Below, one piece after another: positions 1,985 through 37,196 of a stretch of DNA of 64,000 nucleotides; the stretch's first letter is position 1, and each line of letters opens with the position of its first letter. The notes below the pieces were generated by a model. The model saw only the letters and a list, made by a program, of their open reading frames with translations, was not told where the DNA came from and searched no databases. Source of the stretch: Acidobacteriota bacterium (GTDB taxonomy: Bacteria > Acidobacteriota > Thermoanaerobaculia > Multivoradales > JAHEKO01); assembly GCA_029862975.1 (NCBI GenBank), contig JAOTWP010000005.1, positions 4,484 to 68,483 on the forward strand, written 5' to 3'. Made by a program: the position numbers and the translations under genes.

Positions 1985-2736
1985 GCCGCCCTCTCGAGGT
2001 ACTCGCGGGCCAGGGCCAGGTAGGCCTCGGCGCCACGGCTCTTGATGTCGTACTGGAGGATCGCCATCCCGTGGCTCGGCGCCTCGGCCAGGCGGACGTT
2101 GCGCGGCACGACGGTCTCGAACACCTTGCTGCGGAAGTGGCGCCGAATCTCCGTCGCCACGTCGCGGGCCAGGTTCGTCCGCTCGTCGTACATCGTCAGC
2201 AGGATCCCGGCGATCGCCAGCCCCGGGTTCGACGAGCTCGCGATGCGGCCGACCGTCTGCACCAGCTCGCTGACCCCTTCGAGGGCGAAGTACTCGCACT
2301 GCAGGGGGACGAGAACGCCGTCGGCGGCGTTCAACGCGCCCACGGTCAGGTGACCCAGCGACGGCGGGCAGTCGAGCAGGATCAGCTCGTATTCGCCGCG
2401 CGCCGGCGCCAGGCGGCGGCGCAGAATCTGCCGCCAGCCGGGCTCGCCGACGAACTCGATCTCCACCCCGACGAGCTCGCGGTCGGCCGGCAGCACGTCG
2501 AGACAGGGCAGCGCCGTGCGGCGCACCGCCGCCGCCAGGGGCGCGTCGTCGAGCAGCACCTGATAGAGATTGGGCTCGTCGCGGTCGACGTCGAGACCGC
2601 GGCTGGCGTTGCCCTGGGGATCGCAGTCGACCAGCAGGACCCGGTGCTCGAGCGCCGCGAGCGCCGCGCCCAGGTTGATGGCCGTGGTCGTCTTGCCGAC
2701 GCCGCCCTTCTGGTTCGCGATGGCCAGCACTGTCAC
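1981..2736 (-). CDS. parA: chromosome partitioning ATPase ParA/Soj
   Basis: Deviant Walker A (IANQKGGVGKTTTAINLG) with a conserved ParA core. GTG at 2736 overlaps the rsmG stop (GTGA). An alternative ATG at 2763 would add 9 aa. Confidence 0.93.
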   Translation of the reverse strand: MTVLAIANQKGGVGKTTTAINLGAALAALEHRVLLVDCDPQGNASRGLDVDRDEPNLYQVLLDDAPLAAAVRRTALPCLDVLPADRELVGVEIEFVGEPGWRQILRRRLAPARGEYELILLDCPPSLGHLTVGALNAADGVLVPLQCEYFALEGVSELVQTVGRIASSSNPGLAIAGILLTMYDERTNLARDVATEIRRHFRSKVFETVVPRNVRLAEAPSHGMAILQYDIKSRGAEAYLALAREYLERAA

Positions 2737-3962: not shown

Positions 3963-5117
3963 TCAGGTCCGGGCCACGCGCACCCGTTTCAGGTAGCCTT
4001 CGCCGACGCTCTCCGTCTCGACGTCGGGCTCGTCGGCCAACGCCAGGTGGACGAGGCGCCGCTCGTCCGGCGCCATCGGCTCGAGCAGCCACGGGCGCCC
4101 GCCGCTGCGCACGCGGTCGGCGGCCTTGCGGGCCAGGCGCTCCAGCCGTTCGGCTCGCGCCGCGTGGAAGCCCGCGCAGTCGAGCCGGCAACGCACGCCC
4201 CGACCCAGCTCGCGGAACAGGACGCGCGGCAGCAGGTGCTGGATGGCGAGCAGTGCGCGCCCCTCGTTGGCGACGACCCGCTGGCTGTCCGGTCCTTCGA
4301 GCTCGATCGTCAAACCGTCCTCGTCGCCGGCCGTCGACCCGACCTGGACTCGCAGGCCGGCGAGATGCGCCAGCTCGTCCACGGCCGCCGCCACGGCGTT
4401 GCGCAAGTCGTCGTCGACCACGAGGGTCGGCTCCGCCGCGGTCTCCTCGGCGAACGCCTCGGCGGGCTCCTCGGTGAGCTCCTCGGTGAGCTCCTCGGTG
4501 AGCTCCTCGCGGGGCTCCTCGGCGGACTCCGCGGCGGGTACTGCCGAATCCGCGTCCACCGCGTCCCCGGCCGGGGTCTCCCACGGCGCCGGCATCTCCC
4601 AGGGCGCCGGGCCCTCCGGGCTCGCCACCGGGGACTCGCGCTGCGTGGTCTCGGCGGCGGCGGGCTCGGCGGCGGCGGGCTCGGCGGCGGCGAGCTCGGC
4701 GGCGGGGGGCTCGAGCTCCTCGCTCGCGCGCGAGGTGGGCGGCTCCGCCGCGGGCTCGGGCCTCGCCTCGGCCGCGAGCGGCGCCGGCGGCGGCTCGACG
4801 GCCCGGGTCCAGGACGGGTACTCCGCGGAGACCGGCTCCGTGAGGGCCGCCAGGCGGTCGCTCGGCGCGGCCTCCGCCTCGGCCGCGGCGGGCTCGCGGT
4901 CATCCGTCGCCGGCTCCGGGGGGCCGGCCGCGGCGCTCGCCGTCGGCCGTTCGGGGTCGACCTCGATGACCACGCCGCGCGGGGTCTTGACGAAGCCGTG
5001 CTTCTTGTCGATCACCTCGTAGACCAGGCTGTCGGGCTCGACCCCGTGGTGGCGCGCGGCGGCCAGGATCGCCTGGGTGAGGCTCGGGCCCGAGAAGAAT
5101 CTGCGGATCAGCGTCAT
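3963..5117 (-). CDS. jag: Jag/KhpB-type R3H RNA-binding protein with an expanded repetitive acidic linker
   Basis: ATG at 5117 overlaps the yidC stop (ATGA). Has an N-terminal Jag_N-like MTLIRRFFSGPSLTQAILAAARHHGVEP..VYEVI and a C-terminal KH/R3H region (LLEPMAPDERRLVHLALADEPDVETESVGEG). Shows the conserved yidC-jag order. Confidence 0.85.
   Translation of the reverse strand: MTLIRRFFSGPSLTQAILAAARHHGVEPDSLVYEVIDKKHGFVKTPRGVVIEVDPERPTASAAAGPPEPATDDREPAAAEAEAAPSDRLAALTEPVSAEYPSWTRAVEPPPAPLAAEARPEPAAEPPTSRASEELEPPAAELAAAEPAAAEPAAAETTQRESPVASPEGPAPWEMPAPWETPAGDAVDADSAVPAAESAEEPREELTEELTEELTEEPAEAFAEETAAEPTLVVDDDLRNAVAAAVDELAHLAGLRVQVGSTAGDEDGLTIELEGPDSQRVVANEGRALLAIQHLLPRVLFRELGRGVRCRLDCAGFHAARAERLERLARKAADRVRSGGRPWLLEPMAPDERRLVHLALADEPDVETESVGEGYLKRVRVART
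4467..4502 (-). repeat. in-frame 12-nt tandem repeat x3 inside jag (encodes ELTEELTEELTE)
   Basis: CTCCTCGGTGAG occurs three times in perfect tandem, followed by a degenerate fourth copy. Confidence 0.95.
4651..4710 (-). repeat. in-frame 15-nt tandem repeat x4 inside jag (encodes the AAEPAAAEP... linker)
   Basis: TCGGCGGCGGCGGGC occurs twice perfectly, then twice more with one mismatch each. Confidence 0.95.

Positions 5118-8287: not shown

Positions 8288-8297
<10 letters not shown>
7770..8297 (+). CDS. tadA: tRNA adenosine(34) deaminase TadA
   Basis: Contains the CDA zinc motifs HAELLAL and TLEPCAMCAGAL. Its 3' end overlaps the first tRNA-Ser by 10 nt. Confidence 0.9.
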
Positions 8298-8377
<80 letters not shown>

Positions 8378-8427: not shown

Positions 8428-8517
8428 GGAGAGGTGCCGGAGTGGTCGAACGGGGCGGTCTCGAAAACCGTTGACCGCGCAAGCGGTCCCAGGGTTCGAA
8501 TCCCTGCCTCTCCGCCA
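8428..8517 (+). tRNA. tRNA-Ser (anticodon CGA), CCA encoded
   Basis: Same acceptor stem as the first tRNA-Ser. Anticodon loop CTCGAAA, long variable arm, T-arm CAGGGTTCGAATCCCTG and terminal GCCA. Confidence 0.92.
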
Positions 8518-8628: not shown

Positions 8629-8761
8629 CCCAGGGGCGGGCGAAGGGCTCGGGCCCTGTGCATCGGCCGGGAGCCGAACCTCGTCAGGCCCGGAAGGGAG
8701 CAGCGATAAGGCGCCACGGCCGAGTGCCGCAGTCCGCCTGAGCCCTTCGTCGGCCTCTGGG
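8629..8761 (+). ncRNA. ffs: signal recognition particle RNA (small/4.5S-type)
   Basis: Contains GTCAGGCCCGGAAGGGAGCAGC, the conserved domain IV motif (E. coli has GUCAGGUCCGGAAGGAAGCAGC). The 5' CCCAGGGGCGGGCGAAGGGCTC pairs with the 3' GAGCCCTTCGTCGGCCTCTGGG. Classic ffs-dnaX-ybaB-recR synteny. The ends are approximate. Confidence 0.8.
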
Positions 8762-13789: not shown

Positions 13790-14914
13790 TCACGACGCCG
13801 CCAGCCAGGTCGCGAGAACCTTCCGCACCAACGAGGAGGTCGCCAGCGCGGCGATCTCCTCGCGCCGGAACCAGCCCAGCGTCGGCTCGGCCGCCGGCGT
13901 CTCGGCGACGCCTTCGGGCCGCCAGGCCGCCGCGTAGATCTCGATCTCGAAACGGCGGCGGGTGATCGCGTGACGCACCCGACCCGACGCCTCTCCGATC
14001 TCCCAGACGCCTCCGTACTTCGCCGCCAGGGCGGCTCCCATCTCCCCCGAAAGACCCCCTGCCCCGGCGTCCGGGTCGTCGAGCCAAGGCAGCTCCCAGA
14101 ACCCCGCCAGCTGGCGCGACGCAAGGCCGCGCCGCGCCAGCAGATAGCGCCGCCGCACCTTGACGACGAAGACCCGCCGCCGCACCCGCGTGGCCGCCGG
14201 CTCCCGGGGGCGGCGGGGAAAGCTCTCCGGGGCGCCGGCCGCGAAGCCGCCGCACCACGCCTGCAGCGGGCAGTCGGCGCAGCGCGGCGCCCGCGGCCGG
14301 CAGACGGTGGCGCCGAGCTCCATCAAGGCCTGATTCGAGTCCCCGGGGCGGGCCGGGTCGAGCAGGGCTCGGGCGACCGCCGCCAGGTCGCGGCGGGCGG
14401 CCGCCTTCTTCGGATCCGCGGTGCTGGCCGCGAGCCGCGACCCGACCCGCTCGACGTTGCCGTCGAGCACCGCGACGACCTCGCCGCCCGCGATGCTGGC
14501 GATGGCGGCCGCCGTGTACTCGCCGATCCCGGGCAACTGGCGCCACTGGGCCGCGCTCGCCGGCCAGGCGCCGGCCGCGGCGACCTGGCGGGCGGCCGCG
14601 TGGAGGTGGCGAGCACGGCGGTAGTAGCCAAGCCCCGACCAGGCTGCCAGCACCTCTTCCGGCGCCGCCGCCGCCAGCGTCTCGACGTCCGGGAAGCGCT
14701 CGAGAAACCGCTCGTAGTACGGGAGGACCGCTTCCACCCGCGTCTGCTGCAGCATCACCTCCGCCACCCAGGTGGCGTACGCGTCGCCGCGCCGCCGCCA
14801 CGGCAGGTCACGGCGCCAGCGCTCGTACCAGACGAGGAGCGCCTGGCTGGCCCGCGCCGCCGCGTCGGCATCGCCGGCCAACATGGCCGCACCCGGCCTC
14901 AGCCGGCGGGGCAC
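13790..14914 (-). CDS. mutY: A/G-specific adenine DNA glycosylase MutY
   Basis: RDLPWRR, WVAEVMLQQTRV, GLGYYRRARHLH and a 4Fe-4S cluster loop CRPRAPRCADCPLQAWC, plus a NUDIX-like C-terminus. Start is GTG 14914 or ATG 14884. Confidence 0.9.
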   Translation of the reverse strand: MPRRLRPGAAMLAGDADAAARASQALLVWYERWRRDLPWRRRGDAYATWVAEVMLQQTRVEAVLPYYERFLERFPDVETLAAAAPEEVLAAWSGLGYYRRARHLHAAARQVAAAGAWPASAAQWRQLPGIGEYTAAAIASIAGGEVVAVLDGNVERVGSRLAASTADPKKAAARRDLAAVARALLDPARPGDSNQALMELGATVCRPRAPRCADCPLQAWCGGFAAGAPESFPRRPREPAATRVRRRVFVVKVRRRYLLARRGLASRQLAGFWELPWLDDPDAGAGGLSGEMGAALAAKYGGVWEIGEASGRVRHAITRRRFEIEIYAAAWRPEGVAETPAAEPTLGWFRREEIAALATSSLVRKVLATWLAAS

Positions 14915-14987
14915 CGGGCGAAGCGCTCGCTCGCGCTCCCCGGGGGGGTGCGGCGAGCCTCTTTCGTGATAAACAAGAGCAGCAAGG

Positions 14988-15134
14988 GGGGAGGTTCCGG
15001 GGTTGCGGAGTCTTGGAGGGAGCCCCTGCTAGGACAGGAGCCTGTGTTGCGGATTGAGACGTGACGAGACAGATCTGCTGAAAGGATCTGCTGAACGGTC
15101 TCGCTGTTGTGGACTCAGGTAGAGGAACCTCCCC
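14988..15134 (-). repeat. perfect 11-bp inverted repeat enclosing a 125-nt ORF-free segment with an internal tandem repeat
   Basis: GGGGAGGTTCC at 14988-14998 is the exact reverse complement of GGAACCTCCCC at 15124-15134. Inside, GATCTGCTGAA occurs at 15072-15082 and 15085-15095. Confidence 0.85.
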
Positions 15135-15162
15135 GTGTTTTCCTTACTTGCCACATTCTTGA

Positions 15163-15179
15163 AGCAATCTCCGTGCCAG
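15163..15179 (-). promoter_or_regulatory. sigma-54 (RpoN) -24/-12 promoter
   Basis: The minus strand reads CTGGCACGGAGATTGCT, matching YTGGCACGrNNNTTGCW at every specified position. It is intergenic and points toward the structured spacer and mutY. Confidence 0.6.
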
Positions 15180-16984: not shown

Positions 16985-17065
16985 CGCCAGCCCTCGTTGA
17001 GTGAAGCACCGCGTTTAGCGACCAAATCAGAGCGTTTTCTCGATACGGGACTACGTTCAACAAGT

Positions 17066-17084
17066 TTTCCACAGCCTGTGGAAA
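17066..17084. promoter_or_regulatory. pair of convergent DnaA boxes forming a 19-bp palindrome just upstream of dnaA
   Basis: TTTCCACAGcCTGTGGAAA has 9-bp arms. The left box in context, TTTTCCACA (17065-17073), fits the DnaA box consensus TTWTNCACA. Lies 10 nt upstream of the dnaA ATG. Confidence 0.6.
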
Positions 17085-17094
17085 GCGGGCGGGC

Positions 17095-18396
17095 ATGGCT
17101 CAAGCACTCTGGCAGCGCCTTCAAGACAACCTCCAACGCGAGCTGGACCCGGAAGAGTTCACGACCTGGTTTCGGCCGCTCAAGGTTCGTGAGGAGAGCG
17201 CCGACAGCCTGATCCTGTCGGCGCCCAGCGAGCGTTTTCTCCACACCCTCGAGCAGAGCTACCGGCCGGCGGTCGACCGCGCCATCAGCGAGCTCAAGGG
17301 CTCCGCCTTCCGCGTGCTCTTCGCCGTCGAGACCGCGGCCTCCCCCGGCCGCCAGGCCACCGGCGGCGAGGCCGACGGCGGCGAGGCGTTCAATCCGCGC
17401 TATACCTTCAAGACCTTCGTCGTCGGCAACTCCAACCAGTTCGCCCACGCCGCCGCGCGCTCGATCTCCAACCGCCCGGCGGAGAGCTACAACCCGCTGT
17501 TCCTCTACGCGGGCGTCGGGCTCGGCAAGACCCACCTGCTGCACGCCACGGGTCATGCGATCGCCAAGAAGCACCCCGGTCTGAGGGTGATGTACCTGCC
17601 CGCCGAGCAGTTCGTCAACGAGCTCATCAGCTCGCTGCGCTTCAACCGGATGCCGGAGTTCCGGGAGCGCTACCGCTCGATCGACGTGCTGATGGTCGAC
17701 GACATCCAGTTCCTCGCCAACAAGGAGCGTACCCAGGAGGAGTTCTTCCACACGTTCAACACCCTCTACACGCGGCAGAAGCAGATCATCCTCTCTTCGG
17801 ACTCCTCGCCGCGCGACATCCGCGACCTCGAAGAGCGGCTTCGCAGCCGCTTCGAATGGGGTCTCATCGCCGACATCCAGCCGCCCGACCTCGAGACCAA
17901 GGTGGCCATTCTGCGGCGCAAGGCCGACCAGGAGCGCGTGGCGCTGCCCGACGACGTGGCGCTCTTCATCGCTTCCCAGGTGAAGTCGAACATCCGCGAG
18001 CTCGAGGGGCGGCTCAACCGCGTCGTGGCGTTCGCCTCCCTGACCGCCAAGCCCATCACGCTCGAGCTGACGAAAGAGACCCTCAAGGACATGCTGGCGG
18101 ACGGCAACCGCCGCATCCTGGCCTCGGAGATCACGAAACACGTCGCCCGCCACTACGGCCTCAAGGTCAACGAGATCAAGAGCAAGAACAACTCCAAGCA
18201 GATCGCCTTTCCGCGGCAGGTCGCCATGTATCTGTGCAAGCGCCTGACCGATCTCTCGTACCCCGAGATCGGCAAGCAGTTCAACGACAAGCACCACTCC
18301 ACGGTCATGTACTCGGTCGAGAAGATCGAGGCGCTGCGAGCCCAGGACCCGGACCTCGACCGGACGATCAAGGGCTGGATCCACCACTTCTCCTGA
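17095..18396 (+). CDS. dnaA: chromosomal replication initiator protein DnaA
   Basis: AAA+ core (LFLYAGVGLGKTHLLHA, VLMVDDIQFL) and a C-terminal DNA-binding domain (FPRQVAMYLCKRLTDLSYPEIGKQFNDKHHSTVMYSVEKI). Confidence 0.96.
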   Translation: MAQALWQRLQDNLQRELDPEEFTTWFRPLKVREESADSLILSAPSERFLHTLEQSYRPAVDRAISELKGSAFRVLFAVETAASPGRQATGGEADGGEAFNPRYTFKTFVVGNSNQFAHAAARSISNRPAESYNPLFLYAGVGLGKTHLLHATGHAIAKKHPGLRVMYLPAEQFVNELISSLRFNRMPEFRERYRSIDVLMVDDIQFLANKERTQEEFFHTFNTLYTRQKQIILSSDSSPRDIRDLEERLRSRFEWGLIADIQPPDLETKVAILRRKADQERVALPDDVALFIASQVKSNIRELEGRLNRVVAFASLTAKPITLELTKETLKDMLADGNRRILASEITKHVARHYGLKVNEIKSKNNSKQIAFPRQVAMYLCKRLTDLSYPEIGKQFNDKHHSTVMYSVEKIEALRAQDPDLDRTIKGWIHHFS

Positions 18397-18439: not shown

Positions 18440-18670
18440 ACCGGCAAAAAAGCTGCGGATCGCGCGGCGGACGGGCTGTGGAGAACCGCGCGTCGGCCCG
18501 CCGGGAGCGCGTTTTCCGCCGTCGGTCCGCAGGCGACGAACAGCCGGTTTCCGCACCCTGCGGACGCCTGAGCGCCCCGCCCGGGATGAGCTCGCGGCTC
18601 GCTTTCCGCACTCTCCGCAGCCGCTACTACTACGACGGCTATGCTATATACTCCCTCTCTTCCAGGAAGA
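18440..18670. other. candidate oriC: cluster of degenerate DnaA-box-like repeats followed by an AT-rich element
   Basis: Six exact TCCGCA/TGCGGA hexamers start at 18454, 18526, 18551, 18559, 18606 and 18614. Two sit in identical TTTCCGCAC 9-mers (18548, 18603). TTTTCCGCC (18512) and TGTGGAGAA (18477) are also present. The AT-richest stretch of the region, CTACTACTACGACGGCTATGCTATATACTCC, follows at 18625-18655. Confidence 0.5.
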
Positions 18671-18680
18671 AGAAGGTGCC

Positions 18681-19775
18681 ATGGAAATCCGCCTCGATCG
18701 CTCGAAGTTCCTCTCGGAGCTCGGTCCCATGCAGGGAATCGTCGAACGTCGAACGACGATCCCGGTGCTGTCGCACATCCTTCTCCGGGCCGACGGCCAG
18801 CGGCTGTCGCTGGCCGCGACCGACCTCGACGTCTCCTTGACCTCGTGGGTCGAAGCGGACGTGACCGCCGCCGGCGGAGTGGCCGTCCAGGCCAAGAAGT
18901 TCATCGAGATCATCCGCGCCCTCTCCGACGAGGAGATCACCCTCCTTCAGGAGGGCGAGAAGCGGCTGGCCATCGTCGCGGAGCGCTCGCGGTTCCAGAT
19001 CAACGGTCTCTCCCCGGAGGACTTTCCGACCCTTCCGCAGGTGGAGGGAACGGTTCAGGAGATCCCCTTCAACCAGGTCAAGGAGATGATCTCCAAGGTG
19101 CTCTTCGCCGTCTCCACGGAGGAGTCGCGATTCCAGCTCAACGGCGCCCTCTTCAAGTTGAAGCAGGGCGGGCTCGAGATGGTCGCGACCGACGGCCACC
19201 GTCTGGCGCTGGTCGAGAACGCTCTCGACGGTGGCCGCGACGAGGACGGCGTGCTCGTGCCGCGCAAGGCGCTGCAGGAGCTGCAGCGCTTCGAGGGCGA
19301 CGGTGCGCTCAGTCTGTGCCGCGGCGAGCACCATCTCGCCTTCCGGCTGGGGCGCAGGGAGCTCGTCTGCAGGATCCTCGAAGGGACCTTCCCGGACTAC
19401 GAGCGGGTGATCGCCAAGGACAACGACAAGAAGGTGTCGTTCGCGCGGAAGGACCTCGCGACGGCCGTGCAGCGGGTGGCCCTGCTGACGGGTGACCGCA
19501 CCCGGGCGGTGCGCTTCCAGTTCGAGGACGGCAAGCTCAACATCTCGGCCGCGAACCCCGATCTCGGCGAGGCGATGGAAGAGGTCTCGTGCGACTACGC
19601 GGGTGCGGCCTTCTCGCTCGGCATCAACCCCGACTACATGAGCCACTTCCTGGCCGTCGTCGACACCGAGCGGGTCCGTTTCGAGCTCAAGGACGAGAAC
19701 TCGCAGTGCGTCGGACTGCCGGTGGACGGCGAGGATCGGCGCTATCTCTGCGTCATCATGCCGATGCGGGTCTGA
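18681..19775 (+). CDS. dnaN: DNA polymerase III beta sliding clamp
   Basis: 364 aa starting MEIRLDRSKFLSELGPMQGIVERRTTIPVLSHILL, with a GAAGAAGAAGG Shine-Dalgarno upstream. The ORF-track entry 17856-19775 is a read-through of the spacer. Confidence 0.95.
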   Translation: MEIRLDRSKFLSELGPMQGIVERRTTIPVLSHILLRADGQRLSLAATDLDVSLTSWVEADVTAAGGVAVQAKKFIEIIRALSDEEITLLQEGEKRLAIVAERSRFQINGLSPEDFPTLPQVEGTVQEIPFNQVKEMISKVLFAVSTEESRFQLNGALFKLKQGGLEMVATDGHRLALVENALDGGRDEDGVLVPRKALQELQRFEGDGALSLCRGEHHLAFRLGRRELVCRILEGTFPDYERVIAKDNDKKVSFARKDLATAVQRVALLTGDRTRAVRFQFEDGKLNISAANPDLGEAMEEVSCDYAGAAFSLGINPDYMSHFLAVVDTERVRFELKDENSQCVGLPVDGEDRRYLCVIMPMRV

Positions 19776-34479: not shown

Positions 34480-35856
34480 CTACTTGCGGCCCGCCGCGCG
34501 ACCGTAGGCGCGCAGCTTGTTGCGGACAGTCTTCACGTCGACGCCAAGCCGCCGCGCCGCCTCGGACTTGTTGTCGCCGCACTGGGCGAGGGTCTCGAGG
34601 ACGACGATGCGCTCGGCCTCGGAGGCGGTGACGTCCGGCGGCAGGACGATCCCCCGGCGCCGGGCGACGGAGCCGTCGCGCAGAAACGGCGGCAGATGGA
34701 CGCTTTCGATCCAGCCCTCGCGCGCCAGGATCATCGCCCGCTCCATGACGTTGCGAAGCTCGCGGACGTTGCCGGGCCAGTGGTACTCGCCCATCAGATC
34801 GAGAGCTTCGGCGCTGACGCCGGCGACGTCCACGCGATGCTTGTCGTTGAAGCTCGAGATGAAGTGCTGGGCCAGCAGCGCGAGGTCCTCGAGCCGCGCG
34901 CGAAGCGGCGGCAGCTCGACGGTGAACACGTTGAGCCGGTAGAAGAGGTCGGCGCGCAGCAGCCCCTCTTCGACGGCGGCCAGTGGGTCGCGGTGGGTCG
35001 CCGCCAGGACCCTCACGTCGACCGCGATCTCGCGCCGCCCGCCGAGCCGGCGCACGAGGCCGTCCTCGAGAACGCGGAGAAAGCGCGGCTGCAGCGCGAC
35101 GGGCATCTCGGCGATCTCGTCGAGGAAGAGGATGCCGCCGTCCGCCATCTCGAAGCAGCCCGGCCGCGCGGTGGTGGCGCCGGTGAAGGCGCCGGCCTGA
35201 TGGCCGAAGAGCTCGCTCTCGACCAGCCCCTCCGGCAGGGCCGCGGTGTTGATCGCCACGAGCGGCGCGGCGGAGCGCGAGCTCAGGCGATGGATCGCCT
35301 GGGCGGCGACCTCCTTGCCGGTGCCGCTCTCGCCCGTGAGGATCACCGAGGCCTCGCTGGCCGCCACGATCCGGACGAGCTTCTGCACCTCCCGCATCGC
35401 GCGGCTCGTGCCGATGAGGCCGCCCACGCCGGGGCTGCCGCGCAGGCGGCGCTCGAGCCGGGTCGTCTCGCGCTGGCGCTCCAACCGGCGCTCGGCGGCC
35501 GTCAGCAGCGAGCGCAGCTTGCCGTAGTCGAGCGGCTTGGTGAGGAAGTCGAGCGCGCCCCGCTTCATGGCTTCGACGGCCGCGTCGATGCTGCCGAAGG
35601 CGGTGATCAGGATCACGGGGCGTCCCGGAGCGGGACCGCGCAAGAGGTCGAGCAGCTCGAGGCCGCTCGCGTCGGGCAGCACGACGTCGGAGATCACGAG
35701 GTCGGGCCGCGCCCGGTCGAGCACCGCCCGGGCGGCGGCGCCGTCGGCGGCCAGCTCGACGCCGTAGCCCCAGTCGCGAAGCCTGAGCGCGAGAACCTCG
35801 CGCACGGCGGCCTCGTCGTCGACGACGAGGATCGTGCTGCCGTCGGGGGTGGCCAT
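34480..35856 (-). CDS. sigma-54-dependent response regulator (NtrC family: REC-AAA+-Fis HTH)
   Basis: REC domain ILVVDDE...ISDVVLPD. AAA+ domain with GESGTGKE, the GAFTGA loop (HQAGAFTGA) and WPGNVRELRNV. C-terminal HTH NKSEAARRLGVDVKTVRNKL. Start at ATG 35856. Confidence 0.93.
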   Translation of the reverse strand: MATPDGSTILVVDDEAAVREVLALRLRDWGYGVELAADGAAARAVLDRARPDLVISDVVLPDASGLELLDLLRGPAPGRPVILITAFGSIDAAVEAMKRGALDFLTKPLDYGKLRSLLTAAERRLERQRETTRLERRLRGSPGVGGLIGTSRAMREVQKLVRIVAASEASVILTGESGTGKEVAAQAIHRLSSRSAAPLVAINTAALPEGLVESELFGHQAGAFTGATTARPGCFEMADGGILFLDEIAEMPVALQPRFLRVLEDGLVRRLGGRREIAVDVRVLAATHRDPLAAVEEGLLRADLFYRLNVFTVELPPLRARLEDLALLAQHFISSFNDKHRVDVAGVSAEALDLMGEYHWPGNVRELRNVMERAMILAREGWIESVHLPPFLRDGSVARRRGIVLPPDVTASEAERIVVLETLAQCGDNKSEAARRLGVDVKTVRNKLRAYGRAAGRK

Positions 35857-37121: not shown

Positions 37122-37196
37122 TGGCTCCCCGGGAGGGATTTGAACCCCCGACCAATCGGTTAACAGCCGACCGCTCTACCACTGAGCTACCGAGGA
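37122..37196 (-). tRNA. tRNA-Asn (anticodon GTT), CCA encoded
   Basis: The reverse complement is TCCTCGGTAGCTCAGTGGTAGAGCGGTCGGCTGTTAACCGATTGGTCGGGGGTTCAAATCCCTCCCGGGGAGCCA. Anticodon loop CTGTTAA, T-loop GGTTCAAATCC. Confidence 0.92.

Follow-up and report, generated by a model that had tools for sequence, protein, structure and literature searches.

The stretch of 64,000 nucleotides (nt) analyzed here and referred to as the window (positions 4,484 to 68,483 of contig JAOTWP010000005.1, from an Acidobacteriota bacterium) carries, in this order, genes for an aminotransferase, a cyclic nucleotide (cNMP)-binding protein, mutY (minus strand), sppA, dnaA and dnaN. The spacer between mutY and sppA holds what appears to be an RNA gene not described before, which has a sigma-54 promoter and is conserved within a clade of uncultivated Acidobacteriota. 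The divergent, AT-richer spacer described in an earlier note on this DNA is indeed present, with a GC content of 0.58-0.65 compared with about 0.72 in the surroundings. Its length is 339 bp from the mutY ATG (14884, minus strand) to the sppA ATG (15224, plus strand), the 309 bp of the note being counted from an upstream GTG at 14914. The nearest named genome, a Candidatus Multivoradales metagenome-assembled genome (MAG; Acidobacteriota, Thermoanaerobaculia), encodes an SppA that is 51% identical.

To compare this spacer with its counterparts, SppA homologues were traced to their contigs. Eleven more distinct loci were obtained in this way, all sharing the gene order of the window and encoding SppA proteins 54-78% identical to its own, which gave a comparison set of 12 distinct sequences including the window. 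Scans of genome and metagenome contigs with SppA for more homologues yielded distant loci only.

The match to the RpoN -24/-12 consensus claimed in the earlier note was read on the minus strand as described (Table 1), and TGGCACGGAGATTGCT at 15178-15163 fits TGGCAC-N5-TTGCW with GG and GC exactly 10 nt apart. This pattern occurs once in the 64-kb window, where 0.00 matches were expected, and in none of 100 dinucleotide-preserving shuffles; allowing one mismatch brought no additional site. Each related locus possessing TGGCAC-N5-TTGC holds that one copy only. The GG-N10-GC element is invariant in all 12 orthologous spacers, as TGGCA(C/T)-N5-TTGC in 11 of them and CGGCAC-N5-TTGC in the diverged locus L025, while the intervening N5 is different in every lineage. 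In 8 of 11 orthologues, exactly 15 nt of non-conserved sequence lie between TTGC and AGUAAGG, the first block of the RNA to be conserved. This gap, combined with the spacing rule of sigma-54 promoters, makes the predicted transcription start, near G15152, coincide with the first base of the helix that closes the RNA.

A bacterial enhancer-binding protein (bEBP) of the NtrC family is encoded at 34480-35856 (minus strand), 19 kb from the RNA gene. Pointed out in the earlier note, it proved genuine, with receiver, Sigma54_activat (E = 1e-64) and HTH_8 domains and an intact GAFTGA loop, and its presence suggests that this genome uses sigma-54; a link to the RNA locus could not be shown. The rpoN gene is not among the genes of the 64-kb window.

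Analysis of the sequence downstream of the promoter revealed that in 11 of the 12 spacers an RNA body is retained almost unchanged, beginning about 12 nt past the -12 element. The RNA core of the window shares 58-76% nucleotide identity with its orthologues, a range comparable to that of sppA (67-78%) and mutY (59-71%), whereas the spacer upstream of the promoter (15-29%) and the stretch from the RNA to mutY (26-45%) are not alignable. Genomes that share no more than 58-78% identity in SppA have a block of 32 nt that is 100% identical, and GGGGAGGUUCCUCUAC, ACAGCGAG, UCG and GCAAC are invariant in the RNA body. Conserved like the flanking genes, the predicted RNA body is shown by these alignments to be under purifying selection. 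The GG/GC elements and the closing helix, whose loss in close relatives the earlier note had named as evidence against its proposal, are both kept in 12 of 12 loci.

A covariance model of the RNA, termed R1, found exactly one copy per orthologous locus, with scores of 115-192 bits, and a weak match at the correct place in L025 (8.3 bits). It found nothing elsewhere in the window, nor in L001-L007. Among the latter, L001 (SppA 51%) keeps the mutY-sppA arrangement and is missing both promoter and RNA. A search of viral contigs with the invariant 16-mer returned eight chance matches, none of which fits R1.

The minus strand from 15152 to 14960 folds at -65.2 kcal/mol (z = -3.3, with 0 of 200 shuffles as good), compared with a z-score of -1.4 for the plus strand. 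The structure underlying R1 comprises four helices: P0 (GUAAGG/CCUUGC), P1 (GGGGAGGUUCC/GGAACCUCCCC), P2 (GCGAGAC/GUCUCGU) and P3, a variable hairpin. RNAalifold recovered P1 and P2, and the closing stem was recovered in the single-sequence minimum free energy (MFE) folds of all 12 RNAs. P1 is the 11-bp closing helix of the earlier note, confirmed as a perfect 11-nt inverted repeat.

The helices differ in how they vary between lineages. First, in P0, U.G alternates with U-A among the orthologues, and two lineages carry an entirely different helix there, GAAGCAAUC/GAUUUGCUUC in the case of L020 and GUGGUU/AACCAC in that of L025. Secondly, P1 reads GGGGAGGUCC/GGACCUCCCC in L025, with one pair deleted on both arms. 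Thirdly, P2 shows alternation of G.U with G-C and of C-G with U.G, including one double change. Finally, the stem of P3 differs in sequence in nearly every lineage yet remains paired, with double changes in four of its seven pairs; in L015 and L022, P3 is missing and extra CCGCAAC-type repeats are found instead. In L025, P0, P2 and P3 are of different sequence at the same places, P2 being replaced by a different hairpin.

In the alignment, which was fitted to the model so that pair counts lean towards it, 94% of cells are paired, compared with 41-58% when the 3' partners were slid by 1-3 columns. With L025 included, both partners had changed in 15 pairs, compared with 4.2 in shuffles, none of the 500 reaching 15. 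Without L025, six pairs showed double changes, against 2.5 in shuffles (5 of 500 reached this number), and the covariation score exceeded that of every shuffle. Judged from these compensatory changes, support appears good for P0 and P3 and moderate for P2. The alignment of orthologous spacers, proposed in the earlier note to reveal covariation in the 11-bp helix, was uninformative among the close orthologues, all invariant there, and support for P1 comes only from the matched pair deletion in L025.

The paired columns contain 30 G.U cells and 7 A.C cells, an excess that identifies the RNA as the minus strand, which is the strand driven by the promoter. As the earlier note had stated, this strand is free of ATG, none being found between 15152 and 14885. 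Because the conserved single strand J1/2 also carries indels of 1 and 2 nt, which are not multiples of three, the predicted RNA is shown to be non-coding. A small open reading frame was considered and rejected, since there is no ATG and a CUG-initiated frame is disrupted by the indels.

Two other elements of the earlier note fared differently. The tandem repeat lies where it was described, as a 13-nt unit (15072-15084 and 15085-15097, 92% identical); it is an insertion in the P2 loop of the window lineage, absent from 10 other lineages, and being lineage-specific it is not a functional feature. The duplication is identical in L008-L010, and each copy contains a GATC site. The U-rich tract is not a terminator tail; it is part of a conserved block, GUYUAUCACGAA, present in 8 of 11 orthologues, with GA replacing GAA in L016 and UUUUAUCACGAA in L019.

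Table 1. Coordinates of the promoter and of the predicted RNA elements in the window, and of sub-threshold AsdA matches in orthologous loci
Feature	Position	Strand	Basis or remark
Sigma-54 (-24/-12) promoter CTGGCACGGAGATTGCT	15163-15179	-	GG 15177-15176, GC 15165-15164
Predicted transcription start G15152/G15151	15151-15152	-	Sigma-54 spacing rule, 12-13 nt past the C of the -12 GC
P0 5' arm: GGCA (15152-15149), GUAAGG (15147-15142)	15142-15152	-	Pairs with 14978-14987 in the MFE fold
P1 5' arm GGGGAGGUUCC	15124-15134	-	Perfect inverted repeat; invariant in 11 orthologues
J1/2 UCUACCUGAGUCCACAACA	15105-15123	-	Nearly invariant single strand; alignment; holds repeat 1 UCCACAAC (15113-15106)
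P2 hairpin: GCGAGAC (15104-15098) and GUCUCGU (15070-15064)	15064-15104	-	Apical part with 13-nt tandem duplication (15097-15072)
Repeat 2 UCCGCAAC	15046-15053	-	Unpaired, J2/3
P3 variable hairpin GGCUCCUG / UCCUAG / CAGGGGCU	15021-15042	-	Paired though sequence varies
Repeat 3 UCCGCAAC	15002-15009	-	Unpaired, J3/1
P1 3' arm GGAACCUCCCC	14988-14998	-	Inverted repeat
P0 3' arm: CCUUGC (14987-14982), UGCU (14981-14978)	14978-14987	-	MFE fold, pair counts
Conserved single-stranded tail GUUUAUCACGAA	14963-14974	-	GUYUAUCACGAA block
GC-rich 3' hairpin without U-tract	14925-14958	-	Candidate RNA 3' end, window lineage
AsdA sub-threshold matches	L013 5246-5297, L015 5255-5317, L018 5290-5344, L020 5281-5345	minus	Rfam scan

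The strands left open by this fold carry a repeated motif, UCCRCAAC, whose three copies in the RNA (Table 1) are among eight in the window, where 2.7 were expected. At repeat 2, 10 of 11 orthologues have CCGCAAC without any change, and L020 has CUGCAAC. The linkers of L025 are likewise C-rich and G-poor, but with CCCCUCC. The diverged RNA of this locus (2479-2670, minus strand; SppA 54%) has the same promoter, P0/P1 closing stem and two-hairpin layout. The hairpin sequences are wholly different there, with CCGGCCCCUCC, a C-rich sequence resembling an anti-Shine-Dalgarno motif, following each hairpin where CCGCAAC would otherwise stand.

These features can be assembled into a proposed mode of action. 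Sigma-54 holoenzyme forms a closed complex that requires the ATPase activity of a bEBP. At this locus, sigma-54 RNA polymerase would bind the -24/-12 promoter at 15178-15164 and stay in the closed complex until an ATP-hydrolyzing bEBP remodels it, and the RNA would be made only on a specific signal, from near G15152. The dependence on a bEBP is drawn from established sigma-54 biology, and the start near G15152 from the spacing rule. The 5' and 3' ends would then pair into a long closing stem, formed by P0 and the invariant 11-bp P1, enclosing hairpin P2 and the optional, variable hairpin P3. Such a fold would leave three to four C/A-rich strands unpaired, each with UCCRCAAC. Transcription would end ahead of mutY at a hairpin, which in two lineages is a canonical terminator; in the window it is a GC hairpin lacking a U-tract, and the 3' end of the RNA is accordingly placed there by prediction. 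Up to the end of the closing stem the transcript would comprise about 178 nt, and together with the tail about 190-230 nt.

We hypothesize that the repeated unpaired motifs are the working sites of the RNA. If it is a small regulatory RNA (sRNA), the repeats may serve as several seeds for pairing with mRNA segments that are G/U-rich (GUUGYGGA-like), a possibility that we would put at somewhat short of even chances. More tentatively, they could form a multivalent platform titrating an RNA-binding protein, as CrcZ does for Hfq/Crc.

The earlier note had left two readings side by side, an RpoN-dependent sRNA or a leader of mutY. The sequence data support this proposal and, of the two, favor the free-standing sRNA, by virtue of terminators in two lineages and a TAnnnT box in 10 of 11 orthologues. 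A cis-acting 5' leader would imply that the transcript continues into mutY and that the structure controls read-through or translation, possibly, in the window lineage, in a dual sRNA/leader role. The RNA does lie on the mutY strand, directly upstream of mutY, in all 12 loci, but the whole gene block is syntenic, so that adjacency carries little weight, and L001 retains the arrangement without the RNA. Canonical intrinsic terminators (GCGGCCC...GGGCCGC followed by U7-8) stand between RNA and mutY in L015 and L022-24, and strong 10-bp GC hairpins in L011/L012. The latter occupy the position that corresponds to the GC-rich 3' hairpin of the window, whereas the terminators of L015 and L022 are located further downstream. 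In the window, a consensus scan called no terminator and only the GC hairpin without U-tract was seen. The linker itself varies from 67 to 170 nt, and its low identity has been given above; in L025, about 45 nt lie between the RNA and the likely mutY start.

The sequence immediately before mutY also bears on this alternative. A TAnnnT hexamer (TAGTCT, TAGTGT, TACGCT, TAACCT) is found 6-10 nt 5' of the conserved mutY start ATGTTGGCC, with no Shine-Dalgarno sequence, in 10 of 11 orthologues; examples were noted in L013 (about 2661-2666), L021, L019 and L020. Such an arrangement suggests that the mutY mRNA is leaderless and has a -10 box of its own, and mutY thus probably has its own promoter. 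A candidate long-range pairing between J1/2 (CUACCUGAG) and (C)AGGUAGUCU before mutY, striking in L021/L022, was rejected, as its RNAduplex energies were no better than those of shuffles in 11 of 11 loci; the (C)AGGUAGUCU motif is better explained as the TAnnnT -10 box. No alternative anti-terminator pairing was found. An expression platform was therefore not recognizable, with no pairing to the mutY start above shuffles, a non-conserved linker and a -10-like box in 10 of 11 orthologues, and we regard the leader as unlikely.

One lineage departs from this pattern. At 14885-14900 of the window, TAnnnT is replaced by CTGAGGCCGGGTGCGGCC, with a small CCGGC/GCCGG hairpin, and GAGG is found 12 nt upstream of the mutY ATG. 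With the TAnnnT box lost only in the window lineage, which is also devoid of a canonical terminator, transcription from the signal-gated promoter might read through the RNA and set the level of the adenine glycosylase MutY in that lineage, a reading that we hold to be distinctly unlikely.

We therefore consider that the spacer probably encodes a free-standing structured regulatory sRNA dependent on sigma-54 and a bEBP. Several observations weigh against this reading. The sample of 12 sequences is small, and all hosts are uncultivated, represented by MAGs or metagenome contigs. The alignment was fitted to the model, covariation is modest without L025, and P1, which never varies in 11 close orthologues, gains no covariation support from them. 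Read-through into mutY is possible in the window lineage, which has neither a canonical terminator nor the TAnnnT box. No bEBP gene is linked to the RNA locus, and no palindrome common to the orthologues was found within 260 nt upstream of the promoter. This search for an upstream activating sequence (UAS) covered shared palindromes, and a bEBP that acts from a distant or non-palindromic site, or that lacks a DNA-binding domain, is compatible with its outcome. As the promoter is only 45 nt from the sppA ATG in the window, any UAS would fall inside sppA.

The search for targets was negative as well: no complementary site was found near the starts of sppA, dnaA and dnaN or elsewhere in the window. 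GKTGYGG does not occur from -80 to +30 of these three genes in seven loci, with one exception, GTTGTGG at -21 of dnaA in L011. Complements of TCCRCAAC elsewhere in the window are all within genes, and a search with the complement of the tail, TTCGTGATA, yielded nothing.

It is very improbable that the promoter is real while the structure downstream is a conserved untranslated region or a chance fold without function of its own. GC-rich sequence folds easily, the fitted alignment biases the pair counts and P1 is without covariation among the close orthologues. Against this stand the block of 32 nt, fully identical beside a neighboring spacer that cannot be aligned, the helix replacements in L020 and L025, and a z-score of -3.3 on the transcribed strand only.

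A 6S-like or other housekeeping ribonucleoprotein RNA, missed by the Rfam models in this phylum, would account for a very highly conserved RNA of about 180-190 nt that has a terminal hairpin, long stretches of unpaired sequence and about 21 bp in its P0/P1 closing stem. It is nonetheless highly improbable. No match to 6S, Y-RNA or any other family was obtained at E <= 10 in the window or E <= 5 in seven orthologues. P2, at only 7-10 bp, is much shorter than the terminal stem of 6S RNA, P3 is dispensable, and L001 lacks the RNA despite the same gene order. For an abundant housekeeping RNA, a sigma-54 promoter gated by a signal is the very opposite of what is required.

The scarcely credible alternative of a replication-origin element acting as DNA (a DnaA-box cluster or a datA/DARS-like element with TCCRCAAC as weak DnaA boxes) draws on the proximity of dnaA/dnaN (1.9 kb downstream of the spacer), the nearby turn in GC skew, the AT-richer spacer, three same-strand TCCRCAAC copies within 110 bp and the TCCACA core contained in GAGTCCACA, but this core is not kept in L018 and L021, the asymmetric G.U pairing, the compensatory helix changes and the directional sigma-54 promoter at fixed distance are signatures of an RNA, and the stricter box TTTCCRCA is never found in the spacer. 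This octamer occurs four times in the window (17066, 17077, 18548 and 18603), each time flanking dnaA, and on this ground a DnaA-box cluster or oriC within the spacer was rejected. Together with the minimum of the cumulative GC skew between about 18 and 24 kb, these boxes place the locus next to the replication origin, with the spacer outside the DnaA-box cluster.

Several further observations were made in the neighborhood. The region of dnaA (17095-18396) and dnaN (about 18681-19775) resembles a replication origin, with sites at 17065-17085, 18477-18485, 18548-18555 and 18603-18610. A perfect inverted DnaA-box pair, TTTTCCACA-GCC-TGTGGAAA, ends 10 nt 5' of the dnaA ATG, and the dnaA-dnaN spacer contains TTTCCGCA twice and TGTGGAGAA, with the AT-rich stretch GCTATGCTATATACTCC at its end. 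Two long-arm tRNAs (8288-8374 and 8428-8514, both plus strand) are followed closely downstream by a bacterial small signal recognition particle RNA (8647-8746, plus strand, 73 bits), and a third tRNA is located at 37125-37196 (minus strand).

The Rfam comparison suggested in the earlier note revealed no known family overlapping the RNA. Rfam 15, whose families include 6S, Acido-1, Acido-Lenti-1, CrcZ, Qrr, GlmY and Pxr, gave no match on it at the gathering threshold, nor at the relaxed limits given above for the window spacer and the seven orthologous loci. The only nearby match, to ncS54 on L022 (2653-2709, 26 bits, E = 0.08), falls on the terminator hairpin and was set aside as generic. A likeness of CCGCAAC and AGCGAG to the universal 1090-1110 region of 16S rRNA was dropped, no small-subunit rRNA match being found in the Rfam scans. 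Weak, sub-threshold matches to AsdA, the antisense RNA of dnaA mRNA, recurred in four orthologues at one and the same position within dnaA (Table 1; 24-31 bits, compared with a gathering threshold of 52); their most likely cause is that the coding sequence of dnaA is conserved, not the presence of an antisense RNA. Our literature search found no sigma-54 sRNA or structured RNA relevant to this one for Acidobacteria/Thermoanaerobaculia, and no regulatory RNA of any sort for the Thermoanaerobaculia-like clade.

The novelty thus lies in the RNA family, sigma-54-driven sRNAs as such being already established. Those known, Qrr, CrcZ, GlmY and Pxr, come from Proteobacteria and Myxococcales, where they govern quorum sensing, catabolite repression, envelope synthesis and development. 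The host clade is abundant in sediments and soils and uncultivated. A conserved RNA with a clean promoter and repeated exposed motifs would offer an entry point into signal-dependent post-transcriptional control in Acidobacteriota, and the R1 model can be used to annotate MAGs. Should the read-through reading hold for the window lineage, base-excision repair would come under signal-gated control, and the capacity to avoid mutations would be tied to an environmental signal, at a locus fixed beside the replication origin.

Comparison with known systems places the RNA apart from each of them. Riboswitch or attenuator leaders, like this RNA, are conserved and structured and precede a hairpin or terminator and a same-strand gene; the RNA differs from them in that the downstream gene has an apparent -10 box of its own, the linker is not conserved and a sigma-54 promoter is atypical. 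With 6S RNA it shares a length of about 180-190 nt, 5' and 3' ends joined in a closing stem and a large unpaired center. It is distinguished from 6S RNA by the lack of an Rfam 6S match, the short terminal hairpin, the CCGCAAC repeats, the sigma-54 promoter and its absence from the syntenic L001.

Qrr1-5 of Vibrio (LuxO/sigma-54) and GlmY of Enterobacteria (GlrR/sigma-54) are bEBP-gated trans-acting sRNAs, of which Qrr acts by base-pairing and GlmY as a protein decoy. One report presents GlmY as a decoy for RapZ (PMC7073468). The likeness to our RNA concerns its predicted sigma-54/bEBP gating: no similarity of sequence or structure is apparent, both families are in Rfam and neither was matched, and their activators and targets are known. 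Pxr of Myxococcales is a clade-restricted sRNA with multiple stem-loops, a predicted sigma-54 promoter of its own and a fixed genomic position across genera (PMC5568312). The RNA described here resembles it in all these respects, whereas it is about 190 nt long, closed by its own ends, situated between mutY and sppA and without sequence similarity to Pxr.

CrcZ is about 400 nt long, compared with about 190 nt for the present RNA. CrcZ, CrcY and CrcX of Pseudomonadaceae (sigma-54/CbrB) likewise combine an RpoN promoter needing a bEBP with several repeated unpaired motifs. CrcZ and CrcY are sigma-54-dependent, and six A-rich motifs titrate Hfq-Crc (PMC6292655). The motifs of our RNA are C/A-rich UCCRCAAC in three to four copies, as opposed to six A-rich ones; it has a closing-stem architecture, belongs to a different phylum, gives no Rfam match, and its protein binding is hypothetical. 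The crcZ gene follows cbrB, whereas no bEBP gene adjoins the RNA gene here. On this analogy, we hypothesize that the RNA could act as a CrcZ-like sponge with a new C/A-rich motif, UCCRCAAC, for a global RNA-binding regulator of Acidobacteriota.

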